Source: Candidatus Omnitrophota bacterium (lineage in GTDB: Bacteria > Omnitrophota > Gorgyraeia > Gygaellales > Gygaellaceae). Taken from it: a stretch of 64,000 nt of DNA. A program made the position numbers and the translations under genes. Shown one piece after another: positions 4,404 through 55,562 of this stretch. The stretch covers positions 328,321 through 392,320 of the forward strand of contig JAGYNB010000001.1 of assembly GCA_018400015.1 (NCBI GenBank), in the 5' to 3' direction. A model generated the notes under the pieces. The model ran no database searches. It had not been told where the DNA came from and saw only the letters and a program-made list of their open reading frames with translations. Every line of letters starts with the position of its first letter. The first letter of the stretch is position 1.

Positions 4404-5285
4404 TTAGTGCTTTGGTTCTAGATGTATTACTACATCGGTTACGCCAACAAGACGGTTTTTAATCAGTATTTCGATTTGGTTGCTGATTTCGTGGGCTTTT
4501 TCTATCGGCATTGCCGGCTCAACCTGGACATGCAAGTCAAGGTTGATATCGTCTTCTCTTCCTCTGGAGCGAATTTTATGACAGCTTATTACTCCTTTTA
4601 CCGACAGGACTATATCTGATATTTCTTTAGTGTTCTTTATTGGTTGAGTATCGCATAAAATAGCGGAGCTAGATCTTGCTATTTTTATGCCGCTGTAGGC
4701 AATAAAAATAGATATAAGTATTGCGACTATAGGATCGATTATGGGAAATCCCAGTTTTGTAAAAATCAGAGCAACAAATACAGAACCTGTAGTTAAAAGG
4801 TCGGCTTTTGTGTGTATGGCGTCTGCTTTTAAAATATCGCTTTTTAATAACCGGCCTTGTTTGAGCTCGTATTTGACCACGAATATATTTACGACAAAGG
4901 TAGCTAACATAACGACAAAGCTTAATAAACTTATGCTAGGTGTAATAGGGTTTTTAAGTTGGGGTATAGATACTCTTAACAGATTAAAGGCAATCACAAA
5001 CAAAACGAGAGATATAAAAAAAGAAAAAAGGGTTTCGTATTTTTTATGGCCGTAGGGGTGTTCTGCGTCCTTAGGTTGTGAGGCAATATGAATTCCAATA
5101 AGGGCAATTATATTGGATGTGCCGTCAGATAAAGAATGGAATCCGTCCGCGGTAATGCTATGGCTTGTGATTAAAAGACCATAAACGATTTTAACTGCAG
5201 CTACAGCCCAATTAAGAGCAAGAATCGCGATCAGTACCTTTTTTATTTTAGCGAAACGCTGGAATCCTGTTGTGGGTATATGCAT
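4404..5285 (-). CDS. Cation diffusion facilitator (CDF) family metal efflux transporter
   Basis: Six predicted TM helices; HSLSDG metal-binding motif in TM2 and a HxxxD-like motif in TM5; C-terminal cytoplasmic domain. Confidence 0.75.
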   Translation of the reverse strand: MHIPTTGFQRFAKIKKVLIAILALNWAVAAVKIVYGLLITSHSITADGFHSLSDGTSNIIALIGIHIASQPKDAEHPYGHKKYETLFSFFISLVLFVIAFNLLRVSIPQLKNPITPSISLLSFVVMLATFVVNIFVVKYELKQGRLLKSDILKADAIHTKADLLTTGSVFVALIFTKLGFPIIDPIVAILISIFIAYSGIKIARSSSAILCDTQPIKNTKEISDIVLSVKGVISCHKIRSRGREDDINLDLHVQVEPAMPIEKAHEISNQIEILIKNRLVGVTDVVIHLEPKH

Positions 5286-7348: not shown

Positions 7349-7561
7349 ATGAGCGAGTGCAAAATAGAACAGAATAAAAAGTATTGTAATTGCAGTTATG
7401 ATTCCTGCGGTAAAAAAGGCATATGCTGCGATTGTCTGCATTATCATAGAAAACAAGGGCAAATGCCTGCGTGTTTTTTCCCCGATGATATTGAAAAAGC
7501 ATATGACCGCTCAATTGATAAATTTATTGAAGTGTATAATGAAAGAGGCGCGTGGTGGTAG
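7349..7561 (+). CDS. Small cysteine-rich protein of unknown function (70 aa)
   Basis: ORF with RBS, wedged between def and trxB (2-nt gap, 10-nt overlap). Motif C-x-C-x4-C-x5-CC-x-C-x2-HYH; no family recognised. Confidence 0.4.
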   Translation: MSECKIEQNKKYCNCSYDSCGKKGICCDCLHYHRKQGQMPACFFPDDIEKAYDRSIDKFIEVYNERGAWW

Positions 7562-8517
7562 ACGGTAATCAGCTGTATGATTTATTGATTATTGGTGCTG
7601 GTCCTGCGGGTTTGACTGCTGCAATATATGCTGGGCGTTCAAGGCTGAATACGCTTGTTTTTGAGTCTGCGTCTAATTTAAGTCAGGCTATGCTTACAGA
7701 CGATATTGAAAATTACCCTGGTTTTCCCGAGGGTATTACTGGAATGGAGTTGGTTGAAAAATTTAAAACTCAGGCGAAGAATTTTTCAGCTAAGATAATG
7801 AGCAAGGAAGTAAAAAAAATCGAACAGGCCGATCTTGAAGGCAAGAAAGTATGGGCTGTTTATACCGATGACGGGCAAGTTTTTAAGAGCCTGTCCGTCA
7901 TTATCGCAACTGGCGCAAAGCCGAAACAGCTTGGCGTTGATGGGGAAAATCTTTTACGCGGTAAGGGTGTTTCGTATTGTGCAACTTGCGATGCTGCTTT
8001 TTTTAAAAATAAGAAAGTCGTTGTTGTCGGAGGTGGAGATACGGCTATTGAAGAGGCGCTTTTTCTCACGCGTTTTGCCAGTGAAGTTGTTGTTGTGCAC
8101 AGAAGGAATAAACTTCGCGCTACAAAGATCCTGCAGGAAAGAGCATTGGAGAATAAAAAGATAAGTTTTTTGTGGGAATCCAATCTAGTATCCATAGAAG
8201 GAAAGCAGAAAGTAGAAGGTGTGATTTGTGAAAATGTAAATACAAAACAAAAAAGCTCGTGTAAATGCGACGGGGTTTTTATATTTGTTGGCTATGAGCC
8301 AAATACATCTTTTTTAAAAGCCTTGCTTAATGCCGACGACTCAGGTTATCTTATCGTTAATAAAAAGCTAGAAACGTCATCTAAGGGTATCTTCGCCTGC
8401 GGAGACTGTTGCCAGAAGCACTTAAAACAGGTTATAACTGCCTGCGCCGAAGGTGCGTTGGCATATCACTATAGCTTTTCATATATTAATGAAGTCAAAG
8501 GGATTGTTTATAAATAA
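7552..8517 (+). CDS. trxB: Thioredoxin-disulfide reductase
   Basis: GAGPAG FAD motif, redox-active CATCD disulfide, NADPH motif GGGDTA; GTG start. Confidence 0.9.
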   Translation: MVVDGNQLYDLLIIGAGPAGLTAAIYAGRSRLNTLVFESASNLSQAMLTDDIENYPGFPEGITGMELVEKFKTQAKNFSAKIMSKEVKKIEQADLEGKKVWAVYTDDGQVFKSLSVIIATGAKPKQLGVDGENLLRGKGVSYCATCDAAFFKNKKVVVVGGGDTAIEEALFLTRFASEVVVVHRRNKLRATKILQERALENKKISFLWESNLVSIEGKQKVEGVICENVNTKQKSSCKCDGVFIFVGYEPNTSFLKALLNADDSGYLIVNKKLETSSKGIFACGDCCQKHLKQVITACAEGALAYHYSFSYINEVKGIVYK

Positions 8518-8541
8518 ATCAACTCGAGAAAGGAGTTACTC

Positions 8542-8859
8542 ATGGAGATTGAAATAAGAGAGGATAATTTTAAAACAGAGGTGTTGGAGTCTAAAATCCC
8601 TTGTTTGGTGGATTTTTGGGCCGAGTGGTGCGGGCCTTGTAAAATGATCGCACCTTCTTTAAAAGAAATTGCTCAAGAGTATAAAGATAAGATCAAGGTT
8701 TGTAAAATAAATATTGATGAAGCTTCTTCTATCGCCAGTAGCTATGGTATAATGAGCATACCTACGTTAATGGTTTTTAAGGATGGATCGGTGCAAAATA
8801 GCGCAGTAGGTGCTTTGCCAAAATCAGACATAGTCTCCTTGATAAAGTCTTATGTATAA
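8542..8859 (+). CDS. trxA: Thioredoxin
   Basis: WCGPCK active site; 105 aa. Confidence 0.9.
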   Translation: MEIEIREDNFKTEVLESKIPCLVDFWAEWCGPCKMIAPSLKEIAQEYKDKIKVCKINIDEASSIASSYGIMSIPTLMVFKDGSVQNSAVGALPKSDIVSLIKSYV

Positions 8860-20442: not shown

Positions 20443-22029
20443 GTGATGAATATTTTAATCAGCGATAAGCTGTCGCCGGAAGGTGTAGAGATTCTAAAGC
20501 AAGTTAAAGAATTTAAGGTAGACGTAAATACGGGCCTTAAACCGGATGAATTAAAGAAAATTATTTCCAAATACCATGCTTTGGTTGTAAGAAGCGGCAC
20601 TAAAGTGACAAAAGAAATAATCGATGAGGCCAAAAACCTTAAGGTTATTGGCCGGGCCGGAGTTGGACTTGATAACGTTGATTTGGCTTCTGCTACGGCA
20701 AAAGGTATTATGGTAATGAATGCTCCCGGAGGTAATACAATTTCTACAGCAGAACATACGTTTTCTATGGTTTTAGCGCTTATGCGTAATATTCCTCAGG
20801 CGCATGCCTCGATGCAAAAAGGAGAATGGAAACGCTCTGCTTTTATGGGTAAAGAAGTCTATGGTAAGACTTTAGGTGTAATCGGTTTAGGCAGAATCGG
20901 AACTGAAGTGGCTAAAAGAGCTTTAAGTTTCGGTATGAAGATTATTGCATTCGACCCGTTTTTATCTAAGGATAAGGTCGATCAGCTTGAAATTGAGTCA
21001 GTTACTTTGGATGATTTATTTTCAAGAGCTGACATAATCACCGTTCATGTTCCTTTGACAGATGATACCCGTCATATGATTAGCGAAAAACAGTTTTCTA
21101 TGGTGAAAAAGGGTGTGCGAATCGTAAACTGTGCGAGAGGTGGTATTGTTGATGAGACAGCTTTGGTAAGTGCCATTGAAAAAGAAATTGTCGCTGGCGC
21201 AGCATTTGATGTATTTGAATCTGAGCCGTTTGACAGTTCAAATGTTTTATTAAAGTCTGATAAAATCATTTTTACTCCTCATTTGGGCGCTTCTACTAAA
21301 GAAGCGCAGGTTAATGTTAGTATAGAGATCGCCGAATGTGTAAGGGACGCTTTACTCGACAAAGGCATTAAAAATGCTGCTAATTTTCCTAGTCTCGAAC
21401 CTGAAGCAATGAAGATTCTTATGCCTTGGGTGAATTTAGGAGAGCGCCTTGGCTTATTTCTGGGCCAGTTGATAGATTCTTCAATTAAAGAAATTATCTT
21501 AAGCTATAGTGGGTTTTTTACGCCGAATGATATAGCACCGATAAGCATGTCTTTGGTTAATGGATTGCTTAAACCTATCTTACAGGATACGGTTAATTTT
21601 GTGAATGCGATCTCCATAGCCAAAGGACGCGGAATAAAGATTACCGAACAGAGGTTAAGCGAAGAAAGCGATTTTGCCAATTTAGTTAGTTTAGAGGTAA
21701 AAACCGCACAAGGCATAAGAAGTATTGCCGGTACGCTTTTTGCCGATAAAGAACCAAGAATTGTAAAGCTTGATAATATGTATCTTGAGGCCGTGCCTAA
21801 AGGGTTTATGCTTTTAACCAGCAATGTTGATAAACCAGGAATTATAGGATCATTGGGCACTCTTTTAGGCAAGCGTGGAGTAAATATTGCCTGTATGGCT
21901 TTTGGCAGGACTACTCCAGGCGGACAGGCAGTAAGTATTATTAATATCGACAGCCGGGTAAGCGAAGAGATTCTTGCAGAAATAAGGTCTGTTAAAGATA
22001 TAAATTCCGTAAAGCTTCTTAAATTATAA
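20443..22029 (+). CDS. serA: D-3-phosphoglycerate dehydrogenase with ASB and ACT domains
   Basis: 2-hydroxyacid dehydrogenase NAD motif GVIGLGRIG; 528-aa long form with C-terminal ACT domain. Confidence 0.85.
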   Translation: MMNILISDKLSPEGVEILKQVKEFKVDVNTGLKPDELKKIISKYHALVVRSGTKVTKEIIDEAKNLKVIGRAGVGLDNVDLASATAKGIMVMNAPGGNTISTAEHTFSMVLALMRNIPQAHASMQKGEWKRSAFMGKEVYGKTLGVIGLGRIGTEVAKRALSFGMKIIAFDPFLSKDKVDQLEIESVTLDDLFSRADIITVHVPLTDDTRHMISEKQFSMVKKGVRIVNCARGGIVDETALVSAIEKEIVAGAAFDVFESEPFDSSNVLLKSDKIIFTPHLGASTKEAQVNVSIEIAECVRDALLDKGIKNAANFPSLEPEAMKILMPWVNLGERLGLFLGQLIDSSIKEIILSYSGFFTPNDIAPISMSLVNGLLKPILQDTVNFVNAISIAKGRGIKITEQRLSEESDFANLVSLEVKTAQGIRSIAGTLFADKEPRIVKLDNMYLEAVPKGFMLLTSNVDKPGIIGSLGTLLGKRGVNIACMAFGRTTPGGQAVSIINIDSRVSEEILAEIRSVKDINSVKLLKL

Positions 22030-22032
22030 TTT

Positions 22033-23223
22033 ATGCGCAAGGTATTTTTTTTAGTTTTAATTATTTTCTTGTTGCCACTTGTGAGTTTTGCCCAGCCGCG
22101 GATTGAGCTTAGTACTGATAAGTTCAATCTTGGTCGCATTGAAGAAGGTAGGCTTTTCCCGGGTGAGGTTATTGTTAAAAATACCGGTTCCGAACGTCTT
22201 GATATTAAAATACGTTTGACTTGCGGCTGTGTGCAGGTTATTGAGCCACGTGTTACATCGTTTTTTTTGTCTGCAGATGAGTTTAAGGTAATAAAATTCA
22301 ATTTTGATTCCACAGGTTATCATGAAGATATTACACAGTATTTGATTTTAGATACTAATGATCCTGATAGGCCTTCTTTAAGAATCCCCGTTAAGGCATA
22401 TGTAGTGATGCAGGAGTCAAAGCAAGTTGATAAATTCAAACAATTAAACATGGCAATGGTGTTAGGTGCTGGGTTGGCCGATAGCGTTAATCCTTGCGCA
22501 TTTACAGTGTTGGTATTTTTTGTTTCTTTTTTAGGTTTTGTAGGGTACAAAAGAAAAGAAATACTTTTTGTCGGTTTTATATTTATCACTACTGTTTTTA
22601 TAACTTATCTTTTATTGGGATTAGGCGTATTTGAGGTTTTTAAGATGTTAGGTATTAATGTTTATTTGGAAATTACCATAGCTTTACTTACAATGATTTT
22701 AGCATTTCTACTGGCAGGTTTTAATATTTATGATTTCTTTATATTCAGAAAAACTAAAGATCCGCATAAGACAATTCTTAAATTGCCCGGTTCTGTTAAA
22801 AGCAAGATTCAAAATGTAATAAAGCAATCTACAGACATTCGCGAAAAAACCGGCTACAGCAAGAAGACTATTTTTGGAATGGTTGTTTCCAGTGTCGGCT
22901 GCGCTTTTTTGGTAACCGTATTTGAGTCAGTTTGTACAGGACAACTTTATTTGCCGACGATAGTTTTCGTAATGAATACTACGAGTACAAAATTACTGGC
23001 TTTTTTATACCTTGTGTTATATAATCTGATGTTCGTTTTGCCGTTATTTCTGATTGTTGTTCTTGGCGGTTATGGTTTAACCAGCGATAATTTTGCTCGT
23101 TTCAGCCAAAAGAATTTTGGTTTGATAAAAATTATTACAGCTGTTATATTCTTGCTATTAGGAGGGATACTCTTTATATGGAAAAAAGAAGATTTTGTTT
23201 ATTTGTTTTCTTTATTTGTTTAA
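22033..23223 (+). CDS. DUF1573-like N-terminal domain fused to CcdA/DsbD-family thiol-disulfide transporter
   Basis: Signal peptide plus beta-sandwich-like domain with CGC, then a polytopic region with the DsbD/CcdA Cys motifs (SVNPCAF in TM1, ESVCTGQLY in a later TM). Confidence 0.6.
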   Translation: MRKVFFLVLIIFLLPLVSFAQPRIELSTDKFNLGRIEEGRLFPGEVIVKNTGSERLDIKIRLTCGCVQVIEPRVTSFFLSADEFKVIKFNFDSTGYHEDITQYLILDTNDPDRPSLRIPVKAYVVMQESKQVDKFKQLNMAMVLGAGLADSVNPCAFTVLVFFVSFLGFVGYKRKEILFVGFIFITTVFITYLLLGLGVFEVFKMLGINVYLEITIALLTMILAFLLAGFNIYDFFIFRKTKDPHKTILKLPGSVKSKIQNVIKQSTDIREKTGYSKKTIFGMVVSSVGCAFLVTVFESVCTGQLYLPTIVFVMNTTSTKLLAFLYLVLYNLMFVLPLFLIVVLGGYGLTSDNFARFSQKNFGLIKIITAVIFLLLGGILFIWKKEDFVYLFSLFV

Positions 23224-24092
23224 GTTTTTCTATTGCCTGGGCACAGGAAGACGTTAAAGACAATAGCGCCAAAGCTTATTATGAAAAAAGTTCAAAGAAC
23301 GGGTGCTCTAGCTGTAAGAAAAAAGATGCTAACTTGCCAGAGCTCGAACTCAACGTTATTTTATCCAGTAATTGCAAGACATGTTCAACGGGACCTTTTT
23401 TAAAACGGCTGGAAAATTATTTTTCAAAGATAAAGCTTAAGAAAATAGATATTAAAGATGCAAAAGACCTGGTAGAAAAAAGCGGTCTGAAAAGCCTTCC
23501 TATATATTTCATACAGAAAGAAACGGTCAAGTTAGATGATCTTGAGAAAATTAAGAATTTTCTTGAAGAGAAAGATTTTGGTTTTGTTTTTATTCCGCAG
23601 TTTTCCGGCATGACTTATCTATTGGATAGGCAGTTATTTAAAGGTAAGATTGATTTATTCTTAAGTATTTTCGATAAAGATACTGCTGAGATTATAAATA
23701 ATTTAAGACAGTTGAATCCTCGCGTGCATTTTCTGGCAATAAAACGCAATAACGAATTTATCGCCCGTGGCGGTTTAAGAGATTTAGAAGAAATCCGTAG
23801 AGCAGTATGCATACAAAAATATTATCCTAATGATTATTTTGATTATCTCTTATGCAGAGCGAATAATATTCAAAGCACTTGGTGGGATGAGTGTGTAGAT
23901 AATGTTGATTACGGAAGAATAAGGCAGTGTTCTTTAAGTGAAGAATCAGATAAGCTGCTGGAAGAGAATCTTAAGCTTGTAATGGAACTTAATATTTTTT
24001 CACAAGCAACTGTGCTGTTAGAGAACAAAGAATTGTTTCAGGTGTTAAAAGAGACTTCAGCAGGTGAGTTAGAGCAATTATTATCAAAATAA
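23178..24092 (+). CDS. Secreted thioredoxin-fold protein with CxxC motifs (DsbA/thiol-disulfide oxidoreductase-like)
   Basis: Signal peptide MEKRRFCLFVFFICLSFSIAWA; CSSC and CKTC motifs; C-terminal DsbA-like region. Overlaps the upstream CcdA-like gene by 46 nt. Confidence 0.4.
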   Translation: MEKRRFCLFVFFICLSFSIAWAQEDVKDNSAKAYYEKSSKNGCSSCKKKDANLPELELNVILSSNCKTCSTGPFLKRLENYFSKIKLKKIDIKDAKDLVEKSGLKSLPIYFIQKETVKLDDLEKIKNFLEEKDFGFVFIPQFSGMTYLLDRQLFKGKIDLFLSIFDKDTAEIINNLRQLNPRVHFLAIKRNNEFIARGGLRDLEEIRRAVCIQKYYPNDYFDYLLCRANNIQSTWWDECVDNVDYGRIRQCSLSEESDKLLEENLKLVMELNIFSQATVLLENKELFQVLKETSAGELEQLLSK

Positions 24093-25382
<1,290 letters not shown>

Positions 25383-25463: not shown

Positions 25464-27566
25464 ATGCCGAGTTTAGATATGTTGCTTTTAGCCCCCTTAG
25501 GTTCGATAACCGCGCTTATTTTCGCAGGCTATTTGACTATGATGATTTTAAAAAAAGACGAGGGTACGCCTAAGATGAAGGAAATCGCCCAGGCAGTAAG
25601 GGTTGGTTCCCGGGCCTATCTAAAAAGACAATACACAGGTGTTGCGATATTTTTCGCTGTTGTTTTCTTTATTCTCTTGTGGCTTGTTTTTAAAGGTTAT
25701 TTGGTTATATTTGTTCCTTTTGCTTTTTTAACCGGCGGTTTGTTTTCAGGTCTTTCCGGTTTTATCGGAATGACGATTGCAACTCAGGCATCAAACAGAA
25801 CTACAGCTGCATCTGAAATTAGCCTTAATTCCGGTTTAAGGGTGGCATTTTCAAGCGGTGCAGTAATGGGGCTTACTGTTGTTGGTTTAGGGCTTTTGGA
25901 TTTGAGTATCTGGTATTATTTTCTTGATTGGTATTATTCAACTCACGCGATTCCAATCGGTGCAGATAAAATAACCGCAATTACCTCTACCATGCTTTGT
26001 TTTGGTATGGGTGCAAGTTCCCAGGCGCTTTTTGCCAGAGTAGGCGGCGGTATATTTACTAAGGCTGCTGATGTTGGCGCAGATTTAGTCGGTAAAGTCG
26101 AAGCAGGTATTCCTGAAGATGATCCAAGAAACCCCGCAGTTATTGCCGATAACGTCGGTGATAACGTAGGTGATGTTGCCGGTATGGGTGCAGACCTCTA
26201 TGAAAGCTATGTCGGCTCAATCGTTGCTACAGCTGCTTTAGGTGTTGCTGCAGGTCTTGGTATAAAAGGAGTGACTGTTCCTTTGGTTATGGCAGCAGTG
26301 GGAGTTCTCGCTTCGATTATCGGAACGTTTTTTGTTCGTTGCGGCGAAGAGGCATCCCAGAATGTACTTTTAAAGGCTTTAAGAAAAGGAGTTTTTATTA
26401 GTGCGGCCATAGTTGCCGTTAGTTCGTTTTTCTTGATAAAGCATACGTTAGGAATAGAGCATATCGGAGTGTATTATTCTGTTATTGCTGGTTTATTGGC
26501 CGGAGTTGTAATTGGTCTTGCTACTGAATACTACACATCAAGCAGTTTTTCTCCCACCAAAAGTATTGCCCAGGCTGCTTTAACCGGTCCGGCAACAGTT
26601 ATTATCGCCGGAATTTCCGTCGGTATGATGTCAACGGCAATTCCCGTATTGATTGTCGGTGCTGCTATTTTGGCAAGTTTCTTTTTGTCTGGCGGTGCGG
26701 CTAATTTTAACGCCGGGCTTTATGGCGTGGGGATTTCCGCAGTGGGGATGCTTTCCACATTAGGAATCACTTTAGCTACTGATGCCTACGGTCCGGTTGC
26801 CGATAATGCCGGAGGCAATGCGGAAATGGCCGGGTTACCTAAAGAGGTGAGAAAAAGAACCGATGCTTTGGATTCATTAGGCAATACTACAGCGGCAACA
26901 GGCAAAGGTTTTGCAATTGGGTCAGCTGCATTAACGGCTCTTGCATTAATTGCCGCATACAAAGAACAGGTTGTTTTATTCGGAAAAGATATGACTTTAA
27001 GTTTGATGAATCCTAATGTATTGGTTGGGCTTTTTATCGGAGGAATGCTGCCGTTTTTATTTTGTTCCATGACTATGCGAGCAGTTGGACGTGCAGCGGG
27101 AAAAATTGTTGTGGAAGTAAGGCGTCAGTTTGCTGAGATAACCGGTCTTATGGAAGGAAAAGCAAAGCCGGATTATGCAAGATGCGTAACAATCGCAACT
27201 ATTGCTGCTCAACAAGAAATGATTGCCCCGTCATTGCTAGCGATTGTTGCTCCGATTCTGGTTGGTATATTCATAGGCGTAGAGGCCCAAGCTGGATTAT
27301 TGATTGGTTCTTTAGTGTGTGGTTTTGTTTTAGCTGTTATGATGGCTAACTCTGGCGGAGCATGGGATAATGCCAAAAAATACATTGAAGAAGGCAATTA
27401 CGAAGGCAAAGGTTCTATTGCTCATAAAGCAAGTGTGGTGGGTGATACTGTAGGCGATCCGTTTAAGGACACATCAGGCCCCAGCCTTAATATCTTAATT
27501 AAGCTTATGTCTATGGTTTCCATAGTTTTTGCATCGTTTGTTATCAGCAATACTTTCTTTAAGTAA
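25464..27566 (+). CDS. hppA: Membrane-bound proton/sodium-translocating pyrophosphatase
   Basis: 700 aa polytopic; [24 protein letters not shown] and DTxGDPxKD signatures of V-PPases. Confidence 0.9.
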
Positions 27567-27590
27567 TTATAAAATAAGAGGTTACAATTA

Positions 27591-27620
27591 GGGCATCCTT
27601 AAGAAAAGGGTGCCTTTTTT
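27591..27620 (+). terminator. Rho-independent terminator after hppA
   Basis: GGGCATCC...GGGTGCC hairpin (one G-U pair) followed by TTTTTT. Confidence 0.6.
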
Positions 27621-27633
27621 GTATCTTTTATAA

Positions 27634-27662
27634 TTGACAGTAAATACTCTATGCTATATAAT
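27634..27662 (+). promoter_or_regulatory. Sigma-70 consensus promoter for lysS (TTGACA-N17-TATAAT)
   Basis: Perfect -35 and -10 hexamers with a 17-nt spacer about 50 nt upstream of the lysS ATG. Confidence 0.6.
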
Positions 27663-51568: not shown

Positions 51569-52674
51569 ATAATTACCGACCGACCGTAGCAAAGATAAAT
51601 TTAGCTCACCTTGGGCATAATTTAAAAGTGGTAAAACGTCTTGTTGATGCAGGCGTTAAGATAATGCCTACTGTTAAGGCGAACGCCTATGGCCATGGCC
51701 TAGTGCAGATTGCCAAGGAGTTGGATAAATTAAATATTGATTTTTTAGGTGTGTCTAGCCTTGAGGAGGCGATAGCTTTAAGAAGTTCGAGTATAAAGCG
51801 GCCAATACTTGTTTTGGGAGAGGTATTTAAAAAAGATGTTGGTGTGGTTTTAAAGTATAAGTTAGATCAAACTGTTTTCTCATATAGTTTAGCCAAGGCG
51901 CTAAATAATCAAGCAAAAAAAATAGGAATAATAACAAAGATTCATATTAAGGTAGATACTGGCATGGGAAGATTGGGGGTAATGCATAAAGAGGCATTTG
52001 AGTTAGTTAAGAAAATTGCATCTCTTAAAAATATAAAAATCGAAGGTATTTTTACGCATTTTCCCAAGGCTGAAACTGACAAAGCTTTTACTAATAAGCA
52101 AATTAAAGCATTTAAAGGATTAATAAAAAAACTTTCTGAAAATGGTATTTATATACCGATAATCCACTCGGCAAACAGTATGGGGATTATTGATTACAAG
52201 AACAGTCATTTTAACCTTGTTCGGCCAGGGCTTATGCTTTATGGGATTTATCCTAAAAGAGGATTAAGACCTGTTTTAAAGCCGGTTATGAGTTTAGTGA
52301 CAAAAATAATTTTTATCAAAAATCTTCCTTCCGGACACGGGGTAAGCTATGGACATAGCTTTATTGCTTCTAAGAATACAAAGACAGCGATTCTTCCTAT
52401 TGGCTATGGTGATGGTTATTTTAGGGGTTTTTCCGATAAGGCGCAGGTGTTGATAAGAGGCAAAAGATGTAAGATAATAGGTAAAATCTGCATGGATTAT
52501 ACTATGGTTGATGTCAGCAGTTTAAAGAAAGTCTCCTGCGGCGATGAAGCTGTTTTGATAGGTACACAAGGTAGAGAAAAAATTCTTGCTTCGGATTTAG
52601 CTAAACTTGTCGGTACTATCGCTTATGAAGTGACTTGTTCAGTGGGAGCTAGGATCCCGCGTTATTTTATTTAA
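51550..52674 (+). CDS. alr: Alanine racemase
   Basis: PLP-lysine motif VKANAYGHG; C-terminal beta-domain; 374 aa. Confidence 0.85.
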   Translation: MPDKKMNNYRPTVAKINLAHLGHNLKVVKRLVDAGVKIMPTVKANAYGHGLVQIAKELDKLNIDFLGVSSLEEAIALRSSSIKRPILVLGEVFKKDVGVVLKYKLDQTVFSYSLAKALNNQAKKIGIITKIHIKVDTGMGRLGVMHKEAFELVKKIASLKNIKIEGIFTHFPKAETDKAFTNKQIKAFKGLIKKLSENGIYIPIIHSANSMGIIDYKNSHFNLVRPGLMLYGIYPKRGLRPVLKPVMSLVTKIIFIKNLPSGHGVSYGHSFIASKNTKTAILPIGYGDGYFRGFSDKAQVLIRGKRCKIIGKICMDYTMVDVSSLKKVSCGDEAVLIGTQGREKILASDLAKLVGTIAYEVTCSVGARIPRYFI

Positions 52675-53762
52675 GGTAAGATTTGAATAAAATAAATAGA
52701 TAATCCCAAGAACATTATTGGCGTAAGCCATACTGCAAGGAAAGGAATTAGAATTCCTTCTTTTCCAAAGGCAATACCTAAGACAGAGCAAAGATAATAA
52801 ACAAAACTTAAAGCGACAAATACTCCAAAAGAAATAATATTAGAAGAGCGTTTTTTGGTTGTAAAAGCAAAAGAGATTGCTATCATTATAAGTATTACGG
52901 CTGAAAAAGAACTGGCAAATTTATTATAATAATCTACCTTGAGGTTTCTTACAGCCTGTTTTGCGCCGCTTTTGGATATTCTATCAATATACTGACTTAA
53001 TTGGGAGGTATTCATTAATTCTAATTTTTGTCTCTGCTGAAGTAGTATTTTCGGTTTTTCAACTATATTAATTGCTTTTTCTTCAAAATAAAAAGGTTCG
53101 TGTTTTGGTTCGCCGTCACTGAAAAAATCATATACAAGAACTTTATAAAAAATCCATTCATTACCGTTATAGACAGCTTTTTGTGCTACGACTTTAGAGA
53201 TTACGTTTTGATTTGAATCGTGTTCTAATATATTGATCTGTTCAAGGGTGTTTTCATCGACATTGAAGGAATTTGCATAAATTAGTCTGTTATTACTGCC
53301 GTAACAGGTCAGGTATTGTATGATCTGGCTGGTTTTATTTCGTTGTGCCGGTTCAAGCCTATCGGAGATTTCTTCATGAATATTTTGGGTTATAGGTATT
53401 ATTTTTTCATTCACCATAAATATCATAAAACTCATCAGGATTCCCATCATAATAATGTTTCTTGTGACCTGCCAGATATTTTGTCCACTTGCACGCATTA
53501 CAATAAGTTCGTTATCGCGGTTTAACCTGGTAAGGGTAAATATGGTAGCCAGAAAAATACAGTATGAAGAGATTTGAATAAATATCGTAGGCAGAAATGT
53601 CAGATAATAATTTACAAATAAACCTAATCCGACTTTTTGTTCTAGAAAGTCATCAAGGTGTGTGAAGATATCAATGATTACATAAAGTCCCATGAATATC
53701 ATTACACAGGCAAGGAAGGATAAAATAAGAGATTTTACTATGTATCTGTCTAGGATACGCAT
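52671..53762 (-). CDS. lptG: LPS export ABC transporter permease LptG (YjgP/YjgQ family)
   Basis: LptF/LptG family: N-terminal TM bundle, periplasmic beta-jellyroll, C-terminal TM helices; overlaps lptF on the same strand. Confidence 0.7.
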   Translation of the reverse strand: MRILDRYIVKSLILSFLACVMIFMGLYVIIDIFTHLDDFLEQKVGLGLFVNYYLTFLPTIFIQISSYCIFLATIFTLTRLNRDNELIVMRASGQNIWQVTRNIIMMGILMSFMIFMVNEKIIPITQNIHEEISDRLEPAQRNKTSQIIQYLTCYGSNNRLIYANSFNVDENTLEQINILEHDSNQNVISKVVAQKAVYNGNEWIFYKVLVYDFFSDGEPKHEPFYFEEKAINIVEKPKILLQQRQKLELMNTSQLSQYIDRISKSGAKQAVRNLKVDYYNKFASSFSAVILIMIAISFAFTTKKRSSNIISFGVFVALSFVYYLCSVLGIAFGKEGILIPFLAVWLTPIMFLGLSIYFIQILP

Positions 53763-54883
53763 GATCGGCGTAAAAGTATAATTCCTAATGTTGCCATTGT
53801 TAAATTAGCCAGCCACATTGATAAAACTGGCATTTTTCCTTGGAGACTCAAGGCTTCAAAACCTAAAAAGATTAGATAATAAATTGTAACAATAGCGAAT
53901 ATTAATACAATATTTGCATTTTTTTGCCTTTTATGGGTTATTATTCCCAGGGGAATCCCCAGTAATATAAATACTAAGGGTGCAAAGCTGATGGCAATTT
54001 TTTCATGAAGTTGAGTTAAGTAGGGAAGAGGGCTGATCTGTTGGTTTTTAAAGGAATTGATTTTATCTTTTAATTCCTTTATGGTCATATCTGTTGGTTT
54101 TTTGTCTATATTATCTGACGACTGGTTTTGAGCGAGGTTTAATGTCATAAAATAAGTCTTGAAGTATAGTTTATAGAAATTATCCGGGTTTTTAGGGTCA
54201 ACTTCGTCAGAGGTGCCGTCAATCAATTTTAATTTAACGATGCTTTTTTCAGGGTAGCTTATAAATTCACCTTTTTTTGCGACAATTGTACGCGTAGGTT
54301 TATTTTCACCTTGCGGTTCATAGATTCTGATATTGAATAATTTATTGCCTTCTATGCGGTAGATAAAAAGGATATATTTTTGAAAGGAGTTAATAAAAGT
54401 TCCCGGTTCGAGTGCGGCAGTTGGGTTTTTAACTCCTAAATCTACGATAGCTTTTCGTGAGGCAAAGTGGGATTTGGGAATCAATTGGTCGTTTAATATA
54501 ACAAGCGTAAGGCTTAGAATAAAAGCAATTATAATAAACGGCATTAAAAGATTTATAATATTTATTCCGCTTGCTCTTATGGCGATGATTTCATTGTCCG
54601 ATGAGGCTCTTCCTAAAGATAAGAGCACCCCTGAAAGTGCGGCAATCGGTATGGTATAGGCGAATAGATAGGGGATTAAGAAAATAAACAGTTTTCCTAC
54701 GATTTCAATGCTTACGTTTTTGTTTATAATCAGGTAAGCGAATTTTATCAGATTGCCCAAAAGCATGACAAAAGTTAATACGGCTAAGGATATCCCAAAA
54801 TATATTAAAAATTCTTTTGTTAGGTATGTTCGTAGTATTTTCATTTTATTGTGCCAGAGTAAGCGAAACAACCGAGTTCGCAC
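53750..54883 (-). CDS. lptF: LPS export ABC transporter permease LptF (YjgP/YjgQ family)
   Basis: Same family as the downstream lptG; pair arrangement typical of lptF-lptG. Confidence 0.7.
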   Translation of the reverse strand: MRTRLFRLLWHNKMKILRTYLTKEFLIYFGISLAVLTFVMLLGNLIKFAYLIINKNVSIEIVGKLFIFLIPYLFAYTIPIAALSGVLLSLGRASSDNEIIAIRASGINIINLLMPFIIIAFILSLTLVILNDQLIPKSHFASRKAIVDLGVKNPTAALEPGTFINSFQKYILFIYRIEGNKLFNIRIYEPQGENKPTRTIVAKKGEFISYPEKSIVKLKLIDGTSDEVDPKNPDNFYKLYFKTYFMTLNLAQNQSSDNIDKKPTDMTIKELKDKINSFKNQQISPLPYLTQLHEKIAISFAPLVFILLGIPLGIITHKRQKNANIVLIFAIVTIYYLIFLGFEALSLQGKMPVLSMWLANLTMATLGIILLRRSCVS

Positions 54884-55562
54884 CGGTATTTTTTAGCGCT
54901 GCCGATAGTTCTGAGACGGTAGCTCCGGTTGTGAATACATCATCGATGATCATAATATTTTTATTTTTTATTCTGGAATGTTCTTTTACACAGAAAGCAT
55001 TCTTTAGATTATTAAACCTTTTATACTTATCCAGTTTTGTCTGGCTGGGCGTATTTTTAAATCTATGCACGGTATTTTTAAAGTAATCCTTTTTAAAGTA
55101 TTCAGCGATAGGTTCTGACAATAGATGCGCTTGGTTAAACCCACGGTCTTGGAGCCTTTTTTTATATAAAGGTACGGCGATTATACAATCTATTTTGTCA
55201 ATGGGGATATGTTTTTGAATAAATTCAATCATTAATTGGCTGAAAAGTCGATGTAGTTTTGTAAAGCCTTTGTATTTAAATTGGTGGATCAGTTTTAGCA
55301 TTATGCCTTCGTATTTACATACACTCCAGGAGCGAGAGAATTCATAGGTCGAGTTTTTGCAATTTGAGCAGAAACAAAACCTGTTATCATTTAAATTTTT
55401 CCCGCAACTTACACAAAATGGCGCATCGATAAAGCTTATTTTCTCAAGACATTCTAGGCATACGCCTTCAATGTGTTCTTTGTTTTCAATATGCTTATTA
55501 CAGCTTAAGCAATAGTGAGGGAAAATTATGCTTTCAAAACCTTTTAAAAATTCCTTCCACAC
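54846..55562 (-). CDS. comF: ComF-family protein (double zinc ribbon + phosphoribosyltransferase domain)
   Basis: N-terminal CxxC-x-CxxC zinc ribbon; C-terminal PRTase PRPP motif IMIIDDVFTTGAT. Confidence 0.75.
   Translation of the reverse strand: MWKEFLKGFESIIFPHYCLSCNKHIENKEHIEGVCLECLEKISFIDAPFCVSCGKNLNDNRFCFCSNCKNSTYEFSRSWSVCKYEGIMLKLIHQFKYKGFTKLHRLFSQLMIEFIQKHIPIDKIDCIIAVPLYKKRLQDRGFNQAHLLSEPIAEYFKKDYFKNTVHRFKNTPSQTKLDKYKRFNNLKNAFCVKEHSRIKNKNIMIIDDVFTTGATVSELSAALKNTGANSVVSLTLAQ

Follow-up and report, generated by a model that had tools for sequence, protein, structure and literature searches.

A putative split, DsbD-like thiol-disulfide relay with a DUF1573 module, encoded by two overlapping genes in Omnitrophota

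Two overlapping open reading frames (ORFs), here ORF1 and ORF2, are encoded in a stretch of 64,000 nucleotides (nt) from a Candidatus Omnitrophota bacterium (GenBank assembly GCA_018400015.1, contig JAGYNB010000001.1, positions 328,321 to 392,320), which was analysed as a whole and is called the window below. We consider it probable, if well short of certain, that their products together constitute a split, DsbD-like transmembrane thiol-disulfide relay. As read from the sequences, the pair appears to follow the six-cysteine, three-module logic of DsbD, in which a beta-sandwich (alpha), a membrane core (beta) and a thioredoxin fold (gamma) cooperate: ORF1 would supply a periplasmic immunoglobulin-like (Ig) domain of the DUF1573 type and a core of six transmembrane (TM) helices, and ORF2 a secreted thioredoxin-like domain. 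Both proteins carry predicted signal peptides, which would fit a relay with N-out/C-out topology, and the link between them is supported by natural fusions (P0131, P0128, P0133 and P0066) that tie the parts together.

A protein on an NCBI contig (P0001) is 100% identical to ORF1, and a protein of Candidatus Gygaella obscura shares 82% identity with it. In the AlphaFold2 model of ORF1 (predicted local distance difference test score, pLDDT, 80.6) the core consists of six long helices, two of which are broken, at the motifs NPC (C155) and ESVCTGQ (C301). Both of these cysteines are invariant in an alignment of 35 ORF1 homologues, while the fifth cysteine of the protein, C290, is not; across the wider family NPC is found in 88/88 cores and CTGQ in 87/88. 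Profile-profile comparison with hhalign of 119 family cores against a 9-sequence DsbD-beta alignment, put together from Escherichia coli DsbD and eight genes of DsbD, CcdA and ScsB-like type carried on plasmids, returned a score of 36.1 (E 2.4e-4) over 211 columns, to be compared with 14.8 for the reversed template and 16.0±2.4 (maximum 22.1) for 40 block shuffles, so that the superfamily-level similarity to DsbD-beta is significant against controls. The alignment is in register, with NPC placed on TPC, VCTGQ on SPCT and the cytoplasmic-loop LKLP on LQLP, and the same register is obtained with E. coli DsbD alone. We conclude from these profiles that the core in all likelihood belongs, as a distant relative, to the DsbD/CcdA superfamily but is not covered by current family models. 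Lysine and arginine residues are concentrated in two of its loops (12 in TM3-4 and 3 in TM1-2, against 0-1 in the predicted outer loops), a distribution that predicts an N-out/C-out topology with the Ig domain in the periplasm, in agreement with the periplasmic placement anticipated in the first-pass annotation of this DNA.

The N-terminal region of ORF1 opens with a predicted Sec-type signal peptide composed of the n-region MRK, a hydrophobic core and the tripeptide SFA ahead of the likely cleavage site; A20 is invariant among the 35 homologues, and cleavage would probably occur after SFA. The domain that follows has an Ig fold with a conserved CxC motif and scores above the gathering threshold of the DUF1573 (PF07610) / HYDIN-VesB Ig-like (PF22544) models, albeit just marginally over the cutoff, and the earlier recognition of a signal peptide joined to a beta-sandwich-like domain with a CGC motif is thereby borne out. 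No match of ORF1 to the model of the N-terminal alpha domain of DsbD itself (PF11412 DsbD_N) was recovered. C64 and C66 of the CGC motif are invariant in the 35 full-length homologues, and the DUF1573 copies at related loci have a CxC motif in 51/51 instances, of which the CGC version accounts for 42/51. A redox-active CxC in DUF1573 is plausible: a selenoprotein form of the domain with UGC in place of the CxC exists (PMC9312934, PMC13188914), the OS_HP2 (seleno)protein model of NCBIfam is weakly matched by ORF1, and in MauE mutations have defined a periplasmic CGC as the active site (preprint 10.64898/2026.03.05.709764). Translation of 88 loci with TGA readthrough yielded no DUF1573 gene broken at the CxC, as would be expected of a selenocysteine form. 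Given the retention of CxC in every copy and the existence of the UGC selenoprotein form, the N-terminal domain is more likely to take part in redox chemistry, as a functional counterpart of DsbD-alpha, than to be the passive cargo binder originally envisaged.

ORF2 is modelled with good confidence (pLDDT 86.5, predicted template modelling score 0.78, pLDDT >90 from residue 51 onwards), the low-confidence parts being residues 31-50 (pLDDT about 43-50) and the segment 14-43 (<50). Its closest homologue is the Gygaella obscura counterpart P0122 (64% identity); a word-index protein search gave two proteins, and the family surfaced with full HMMER, which recovered 745 cluster representatives at E<=1e-3. 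In the model of the thioredoxin-like domain a strand leads to the CxxC and a first helix, a second strand and a second helix follow, and the Pro then precedes a third strand; among 59 homologues C66 and C69 are >=90% conserved and the candidate cis-Pro P108 is invariant. The Pfam Thioredoxin model hits it below threshold (E 0.0078), and hhalign aligns it with the fused gamma domain of its paralogues at E 0.0022, with the CxxC and the Pro in register. The second motif, CSSC, is read as YSSY in P0122, has no counterpart in the family alignments and is situated in the low-confidence linker; it is probably not functional, and ORF2 would thus possess one functional CxxC rather than two. Of the secreted double-CxxC protein proposed at first pass, the CKTC half therefore stands and the CSSC half does not.

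A similar division applies to the C-terminal half of ORF2, for which the DsbA-like fold proposed earlier is recovered and the catalytic motif is not. A thioredoxin fold with a helical insert is evident in residues 155-304, the position of the catalytic CxxC is occupied by FDKD, relatives carry the cis-Pro motif GPT where ORF2 has QAT, and ORF2 has no match to the Pfam DSBA model (PF01323). This half has a DsbA fold and is not a catalytic DsbA; a catalytic DsbA was considered for it and rejected on account of the lacking CxxC. Four invariant cysteines (211, 226, 239 and 251) are found within or beside the helical insert. Most ORF2 homologues are longer (~580-600 amino acids, aa; e.g. L001:6159-7910, P0273 and P0309) and possess an additional N-terminal domain, called a metallophosphatase or 5'-nucleotidase by some sources (Pfam Metallophos E 0.0011) and termed NT5-like here; ORF2 and its Gygaella orthologue are short forms without it. 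The consensus of the NT5-like domain features a conserved YPCxCP, and by eye its metal-binding-like positions appear altered (GxTH, GDDEF).

When one genome of each GTDB species was scanned by pattern, core-encoding loci were detected in at least 562 species-level genomes, mostly of Omnitrophota, with further representatives in Planctomycetota, Elusimicrobiota, Poribacteria, Margulisiibacteriota, Anaerolineae and Thermodesulfobacteriota. The best 120 homologues were classified by architecture with hidden Markov models (HMMs) built from alignments made here. The predominant form is a CxxC-containing thioredoxin-like (Trx) domain fused to the core (73/120), followed by the DUF1573(CxC)-core form to which ORF1 belongs (36/120), Trx-core-DUF1573 (6/120), DUF1573-Trx-core or DUF1573-Trx-Trx-core (2/120) and DsbA-like-Trx-core (1/120), with 2/120 classified as core only; among the complete genes sampled the core is never free-standing and is always fused to a Trx-like or a DUF1573 domain. 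The CxxC is present in 79/81 of the Trx (gamma) copies. Nearly all permutations of the three modules are represented, and a standalone DUF1573 gene (~110-200 aa) adjoins the Trx-core gene at 36/71 loci, being directly downstream in 34 of those. In a neighbour-joining tree built from the 119 cores, all 36 DUF1573-core proteins (36/36) fall into one clade, and theirs is the sole form without a fused Trx domain. Relevant to ORF1 and ORF2 is P0131 (660 aa), in which DUF1573, core and an ORF2-like region are joined in a single chain in alpha-beta-gamma order: TM6 is followed by a short linker and then by a thioredoxin domain with CLVC, with no signal peptide in between. The N-terminally truncated P0128 has the same junction, P0133 combines DUF1573 with an ORF2-like region, and P0066 has the architecture DsbA-like(CPYS)-Trx-core. 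Several family members carry the Joint Genome Institute label 'cytochrome c biogenesis protein CcdA'. An M48 peptidase gene, which could be a partner or a client, was observed after the Trx-core (and DUF1573) genes at both of the Trx-core loci for which gene tables were inspected (L016:6642-7601 and L017:6208-7167).

The genomic context likewise connects the two genes. They overlap by 46 nt, an overlap that recurs in the Gygaella obscura locus (L018), and the start of ORF2 (MEKRRF) is retained in P0122. ORF1 begins 3 nt past the stop of SerA, a 528-aa D-3-phosphoglycerate dehydrogenase (PF02826 3.4e-64, PGDH_inter, ACT), and purA, encoding adenylosuccinate synthetase, begins 21 nt after ORF2 (24092-24114); no terminator-like site is present between serA, ORF1, ORF2 and purA, the first strong one lying at 27590. 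An ORF2-type gene directly follows the alpha-core (DUF1573-core) gene in 9/9 distinct loci examined, namely the window, L001/L002, L003, L004, L014, L015, L018, L019 and L020, and the context of such loci is always tig-clpP-aminotransferase-serA-(small ORF)-ORF1-ORF2-(HMGL-like)-purA. The optional HMGL-like gene (homocitrate/isopropylmalate synthase-type) between the ORF2-type gene and purA was seen in L001, L003, L004, L014 and L015 and is missing in the window, as is the small ORF of 71-72 aa between serA and the ORF1-type gene (L003:4783-5001, L004:4781-4996 and L015:4740-4958), for which the Pfam matches are weak, fall below threshold and mostly concern families of membrane proteins. Viewed from the side of ORF2, 82 metagenome loci (L098-L179), selected by pattern and hence biased by the search patterns, include 72 with both serA and an ORF2-type gene. 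The adjacency of serA and ORF2 is common, and an ORF1-type gene intervenes between them in one subclade only. The location directly downstream of serA noted in the first-pass annotation is thus accurate, but the context is not the oddity it was taken for: the serA linkage is a conserved synteny across Omnitrophota, and mainly that of ORF2. A mobile or horizontally acquired island was considered and rejected, as the synteny is kept across the phylum and the guanine-plus-cytosine (GC) content is just slightly lower than that of the flanks (0.335 versus 0.37-0.39).

By analogy with DsbD, CcdA and ScsB, from which the electron donor, the gamma-then-alpha order, the reductive direction and the substrates are inferred, the relay can be pictured as follows. 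Cytoplasmic thioredoxin would reduce the Cys155/Cys301 pair within the six-TM core of ORF1, and electrons would pass from the core to the CKTC in the thioredoxin-like domain of secreted ORF2, which would act as the gamma module. This in turn would reduce the CGC of the periplasmic DUF1573 domain of ORF1, the alpha module, which might then pass the electrons on to envelope substrates. The cysteine-rich DsbA-like domain of ORF2 could serve as a docking or substrate-binding module of the kind that protein disulfide isomerase has in its non-catalytic b' domain. A gene pair for a TrxB-like flavoprotein and a canonical thioredoxin, 13.5 kb upstream in the window, is a plausible cytoplasmic source of electrons.

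Several results weigh against this reading. The core alone matches no Pfam family at E<=10, PF02683 DsbD_TM and PF13386 DsbD_2 included, so that of the two domains named for ORF1 at first pass DUF1573 was found and DsbD_2 was not. NCBIfam yields nothing relevant for it, with no CcdA among its models matched, and full-length ORF1, P0043, P0059, P0066 and P0131 are likewise without a DsbD_TM/DsbD_2 match; the positive controls, E. coli DsbD (8.9e-81) and Spirosoma CcdA (3.4e-23), were detected by DsbD_TM. The hhalign probability of the match to DsbD-beta is 43.8%, weak in absolute terms. The TM4 cysteine lacks the preceding Pro of DsbD, a Pro being found instead after it, in LYLP, and no 3+3 internal repeat was apparent in the sequence of the core, its halves aligning at a score of 11.2 versus 13.1 for the reversed control. 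Fold searches of the PDB with the full ORF1 model listed Ig-domain matches only, the Ig domain dominating. A search of PDB sequences with a profile of the 35 ORF1 homologues also found no CcdA structure, but this carries no weight, because E. coli DsbD-beta itself misses CcdA there by phmmer. The earlier description of a CcdA/DsbD-type core that keeps both TM cysteines hence survives for the cysteines, which are invariant and in the DsbD register, but not for Pfam membership, the kinship being visible only at the profile-profile level.

On the side of ORF2, the resemblance of its thioredoxin-like domain to the fused gamma domains is weak (probability 13%), and in this genome its DsbA-like domain has lost the cis-Pro along with the CxxC. 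Further, at 71/72 of the loci with both serA and an ORF2-type gene, the latter is located -3 to 114 nt after serA, an ORF1-type gene being absent, and core genes are missing from the entire set (0/82); ORF2 thus serves some role for which no ORF1 is required next to it. The pair is consequently not strictly self-contained or obligate, and of the self-contained periplasmic pathway suggested in the first reading, what persists is the idea of a single envelope thiol-redox pathway, as supported by the alignment of the core with DsbD-beta, the linkage to ORF2 and the fusions. Perhaps ORF2-type proteins without an adjacent ORF1 work with a Trx-core/DUF1573 system encoded elsewhere; the 64-kb window itself holds no second core and no standalone DUF1573.

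These ORF2-side observations lend themselves to a different wiring, to which we assign a small but real chance, in which ORF2 is not the gamma relay but a terminal client oxidoreductase kept reduced by DUF1573, in the manner of DsbC, DsbG, CcmG or ScsC, and in genomes without ORF1 is served by a separate Trx-core plus DUF1573 system. The retention of ORF2-type genes after serA without an adjacent core gene would be accounted for, operons of Trx-core and standalone DUF1573 do exist elsewhere in Omnitrophota genomes, the NT5-like domain of most ORF2 homologues is also found fused to Trx-core (L022, L024 and L041), and ORF2 contains a DsbA/ScsC-like fold. Against it, the alpha-core subfamily would be left without a gamma domain when nearly all other cores carry one, and with no ORF2 in the chain electrons would need to go straight from the core to the Ig domain, unlike in DsbD/CcdA systems, as established for these (PMC3322552). 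P0131, moreover, has the ORF2 module exactly at the position of DsbD gamma.

Alternatively, the chemistry might run the other way, with the CGC making or shuffling envelope disulfides and the pair replacing DsbB, VKOR or MauE plus DsbA in these anaerobes, which we regard as unlikely. CxC disulfides are expected to be of high potential and the periplasmic CGC is the active site of MauE, which is oxidative; CxC peptides also mimic protein disulfide isomerase. A preprint (10.64898/2026.01.27.701630) likewise speaks of such mimicry. The DsbA-like fold of ORF2 and its four invariant cysteines, which are probably engaged in structural disulfides, would imply that disulfides are made in this envelope. 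Conversely, the core is homologous to DsbD-beta/CcdA, a family whose characterised members all import electrons (PMC3322552), neither a quinone-binding protein nor any feature resembling DsbB/VKOR was observed, and the DsbA-like domain is without a CxxC. There is a comparably slim chance that the entire core family is a hitherto unrecognised disulfide-forming or isomerising system of Omnitrophota, Planctomycetota and Elusimicrobiota rather than a reductant importer, with the DUF1573 CxC as the catalytic oxidant or isomerase and the DsbD-like core as a redox conduit in the opposite or both directions. If true, this would fill part of a known gap, that of the phyla lacking DsbB, VKOR or MauE.

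A very unlikely alternative is that the cysteines of the core, the CxC motif and the CxxC motif serve to bind or move a thiophilic metal (Cu, Hg or Zn) without disulfide exchange. The LysE superfamily, of which DsbD is a member, includes metal transporters, and CxC motifs can bind Cu(I). The Scs system is linked to copper (PMC3322552), and selenocysteine forms occur also among the metal-binding proteins tabulated alongside DUF1573 (PMC9312934, PMC13188914). Yet an invariant cis-Pro like that of the ORF2 thioredoxin-like domain typically goes with thiol-disulfide exchange, the alignment places the core cysteines on the redox-active pair of DsbD, and the conserved neighborhood is without metal-resistance genes. 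Least probable of all is that ORF1 and ORF2 each act alone and are adjacent merely through a frozen housekeeping gene order, for while the tig-clpP-aminotransferase-serA-...-purA order is indeed kept across distant Omnitrophota and ORF2-type genes occur without ORF1, the fusions listed at the outset, the occurrence of the alpha-core gene, in 9/9 loci, solely at this position directly upstream of ORF2 and the 46-nt overlap with its internal Shine-Dalgarno sequence kept in Gygaella all speak for a link.

If ORF1 and ORF2 form a relay, it would be functionally closest to DsbD and to CcdA with its thioredoxin-like partner, and in evolutionary logic closest to ScsB, with its unrelated, splittable alpha. 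With E. coli DsbD it shares three two-cysteine modules, i.e. a periplasmic beta-sandwich, a membrane core with one cysteine per half and a predicted periplasmic CxxC domain of thioredoxin-like fold, and in P0131 also the alpha-beta-gamma order. It differs from DsbD in its core of 6 predicted helices rather than 8, unmatched by DsbD_TM/DsbD_2 and with VCTGQ in place of the PC motif in TM4; in its alpha module, which is a DUF1573 with CxC instead of a DsbD_N (PF11412) with a wider-spaced cysteine pair; and in its gamma module, carried by a second, secreted protein in which a DsbA-like domain comes after it. The pairing of a two-cysteine core, 6-TM and N-out/C-out by prediction, with a separately encoded extracytoplasmic CxxC protein recalls the CcdA-ResA/StoA systems of Bacillus subtilis, but here there is no Pfam/NCBIfam CcdA match, the core is fused and no cytochrome c maturation genes are nearby. 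ScsB represents a third class of DsbD, the alpha of which can be unrelated to DsbD-alpha and separately encoded (Cho et al. 2012, PMC3322552); however, ScsB-alpha is COG4233 and not DUF1573, and ScsB-beta is a recognisable DsbD_TM with 8 TM helices. ScsC retains a CxxC that the DsbA-like domain of ORF2 does not, and this domain is set apart from DsbA/GILT and from the a-b' arrangement of protein disulfide isomerase by the FDKD replacing the CxxC, the cis-Pro missing in this genome and the four invariant cysteines in or next to the insert. As in MauE, where it is a thiol-disulfide active site of an envelope redox pathway, the CGC would face the periplasm, but MauE is an unrelated, DsbB-like membrane protein that works oxidatively with quinone, whereas here the CGC is part of a soluble Ig domain on a DsbD-like core. 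Literature searches on DUF1573, on CcdA together with Omnitrophota and on surveys of the DsbD superfamily found no description of a DUF1573-linked DsbD-like family, and those on 'OS_HP2' gave unrelated papers only.

Table 1. Coordinates of the two genes, their domains and motifs, and the upstream thioredoxin system (positions in the window)
Feature	Position	Strand	Remarks
ORF1	22033..23223	+	396 aa; signal peptide, DUF1573 Ig domain (alpha-like), 6-TM core (beta-like); from ORF list
ORF1 Sec-type signal peptide	22033..22092	+	residues 1-20, MRKVFFLVLIIFLLPLVSFA then QP; read from sequence
DUF1573 / HYDIN-PapD-like Ig domain	22096..22407	+	residues 22-125; predicted periplasmic
CGC motif (C64, C66)	22222..22230	+	candidate redox-active CxC; hairpin/turn between two strands
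Six-helix membrane core	22441..23184	+	residues 137-384; probable remote DsbD-beta/CcdA homologue, predicted N-out/C-out
Cys155, NPC motif	22495..22497	+	TM1 break; aligns with TPC of E. coli DsbD, mature Cys163
Cys301, ESVCTGQ motif	22933..22935	+	TM4 break; aligns with SPCT of E. coli DsbD, mature Cys285
Shine-Dalgarno AGGAGGG for ORF2	23160..23166	+	within ORF1 3' end, 11 nt upstream of ATG
ORF2	23178..24092	+	304 aa; signal peptide, linker, thioredoxin-like domain, DsbA-like domain
CSSC	23304..23315	+	residues 43-46; disordered linker, probably not functional
Thioredoxin/glutaredoxin-like domain	23340..23591	+	residues 55-138; candidate gamma module
CKTC	23373-23384	+	residues 66-69; ahead of first helix
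cis-Pro (L107-P108), P108	23499-23501	+	ahead of third strand
DsbA/GILT-like domain	23640..24089	+	residues 155-304; without CxxC; thioredoxin fold with helical insert
FDKD	23670-23681	+	at CxxC position of DsbA-like domain
QAT	24003-24011	+	at cis-Pro position of DsbA-like domain
Thioredoxin-reductase-like flavoprotein (TrxB-like)	7552-8517	+	Pyr_redox_2 6.1e-57
Canonical thioredoxin	8518-8859	+	113 aa; PF00085 3.4e-34; directly after TrxB-like gene

In the wider window nearly all long ORFs are on the + strand, except at 4404-5285 and 52671-55562 and for a shadow ORF within serA/ORF1 (21504-22313). Every 2-kb bin shows a positive GC skew (0.11-0.32; 1-64000), and the window appears to be co-oriented with replication, its genes being tightly packed with frequent overlaps. 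Just past purA lies a 700-aa ORF (25464-27566, +), by eye a membrane H+-translocating pyrophosphatase, after which is located the only strong terminator of the region (27590-27616), followed by a perfect-consensus promoter-like site (27634-27662) ahead of the next ORF, by eye lysS.

A DUF1573-linked, DsbD-like relay would add a fourth architectural class of electron transporters beside DsbD, CcdA and ScsB, one that is invisible to current Pfam and NCBIfam models and yet is distributed over the hundreds of species-level genomes enumerated above, mostly of uncultivated phyla. It would also provide the first mechanistic hypothesis for DUF1573, as a CxC redox module functionally analogous to DsbD-alpha. 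The series of split and fused forms (alpha-beta + gamma, gamma-beta + alpha, gamma-beta-alpha, alpha-gamma-beta and alpha-beta-gamma) constitutes a natural test of the wiring of the relay. While the chemistry proposed is familiar, the family itself is modular in build, wide in distribution and lacking in annotation; it suggests a function for DUF1573 that can be tested, and would open a way to study redox processes in the envelope of the Omnitrophota.

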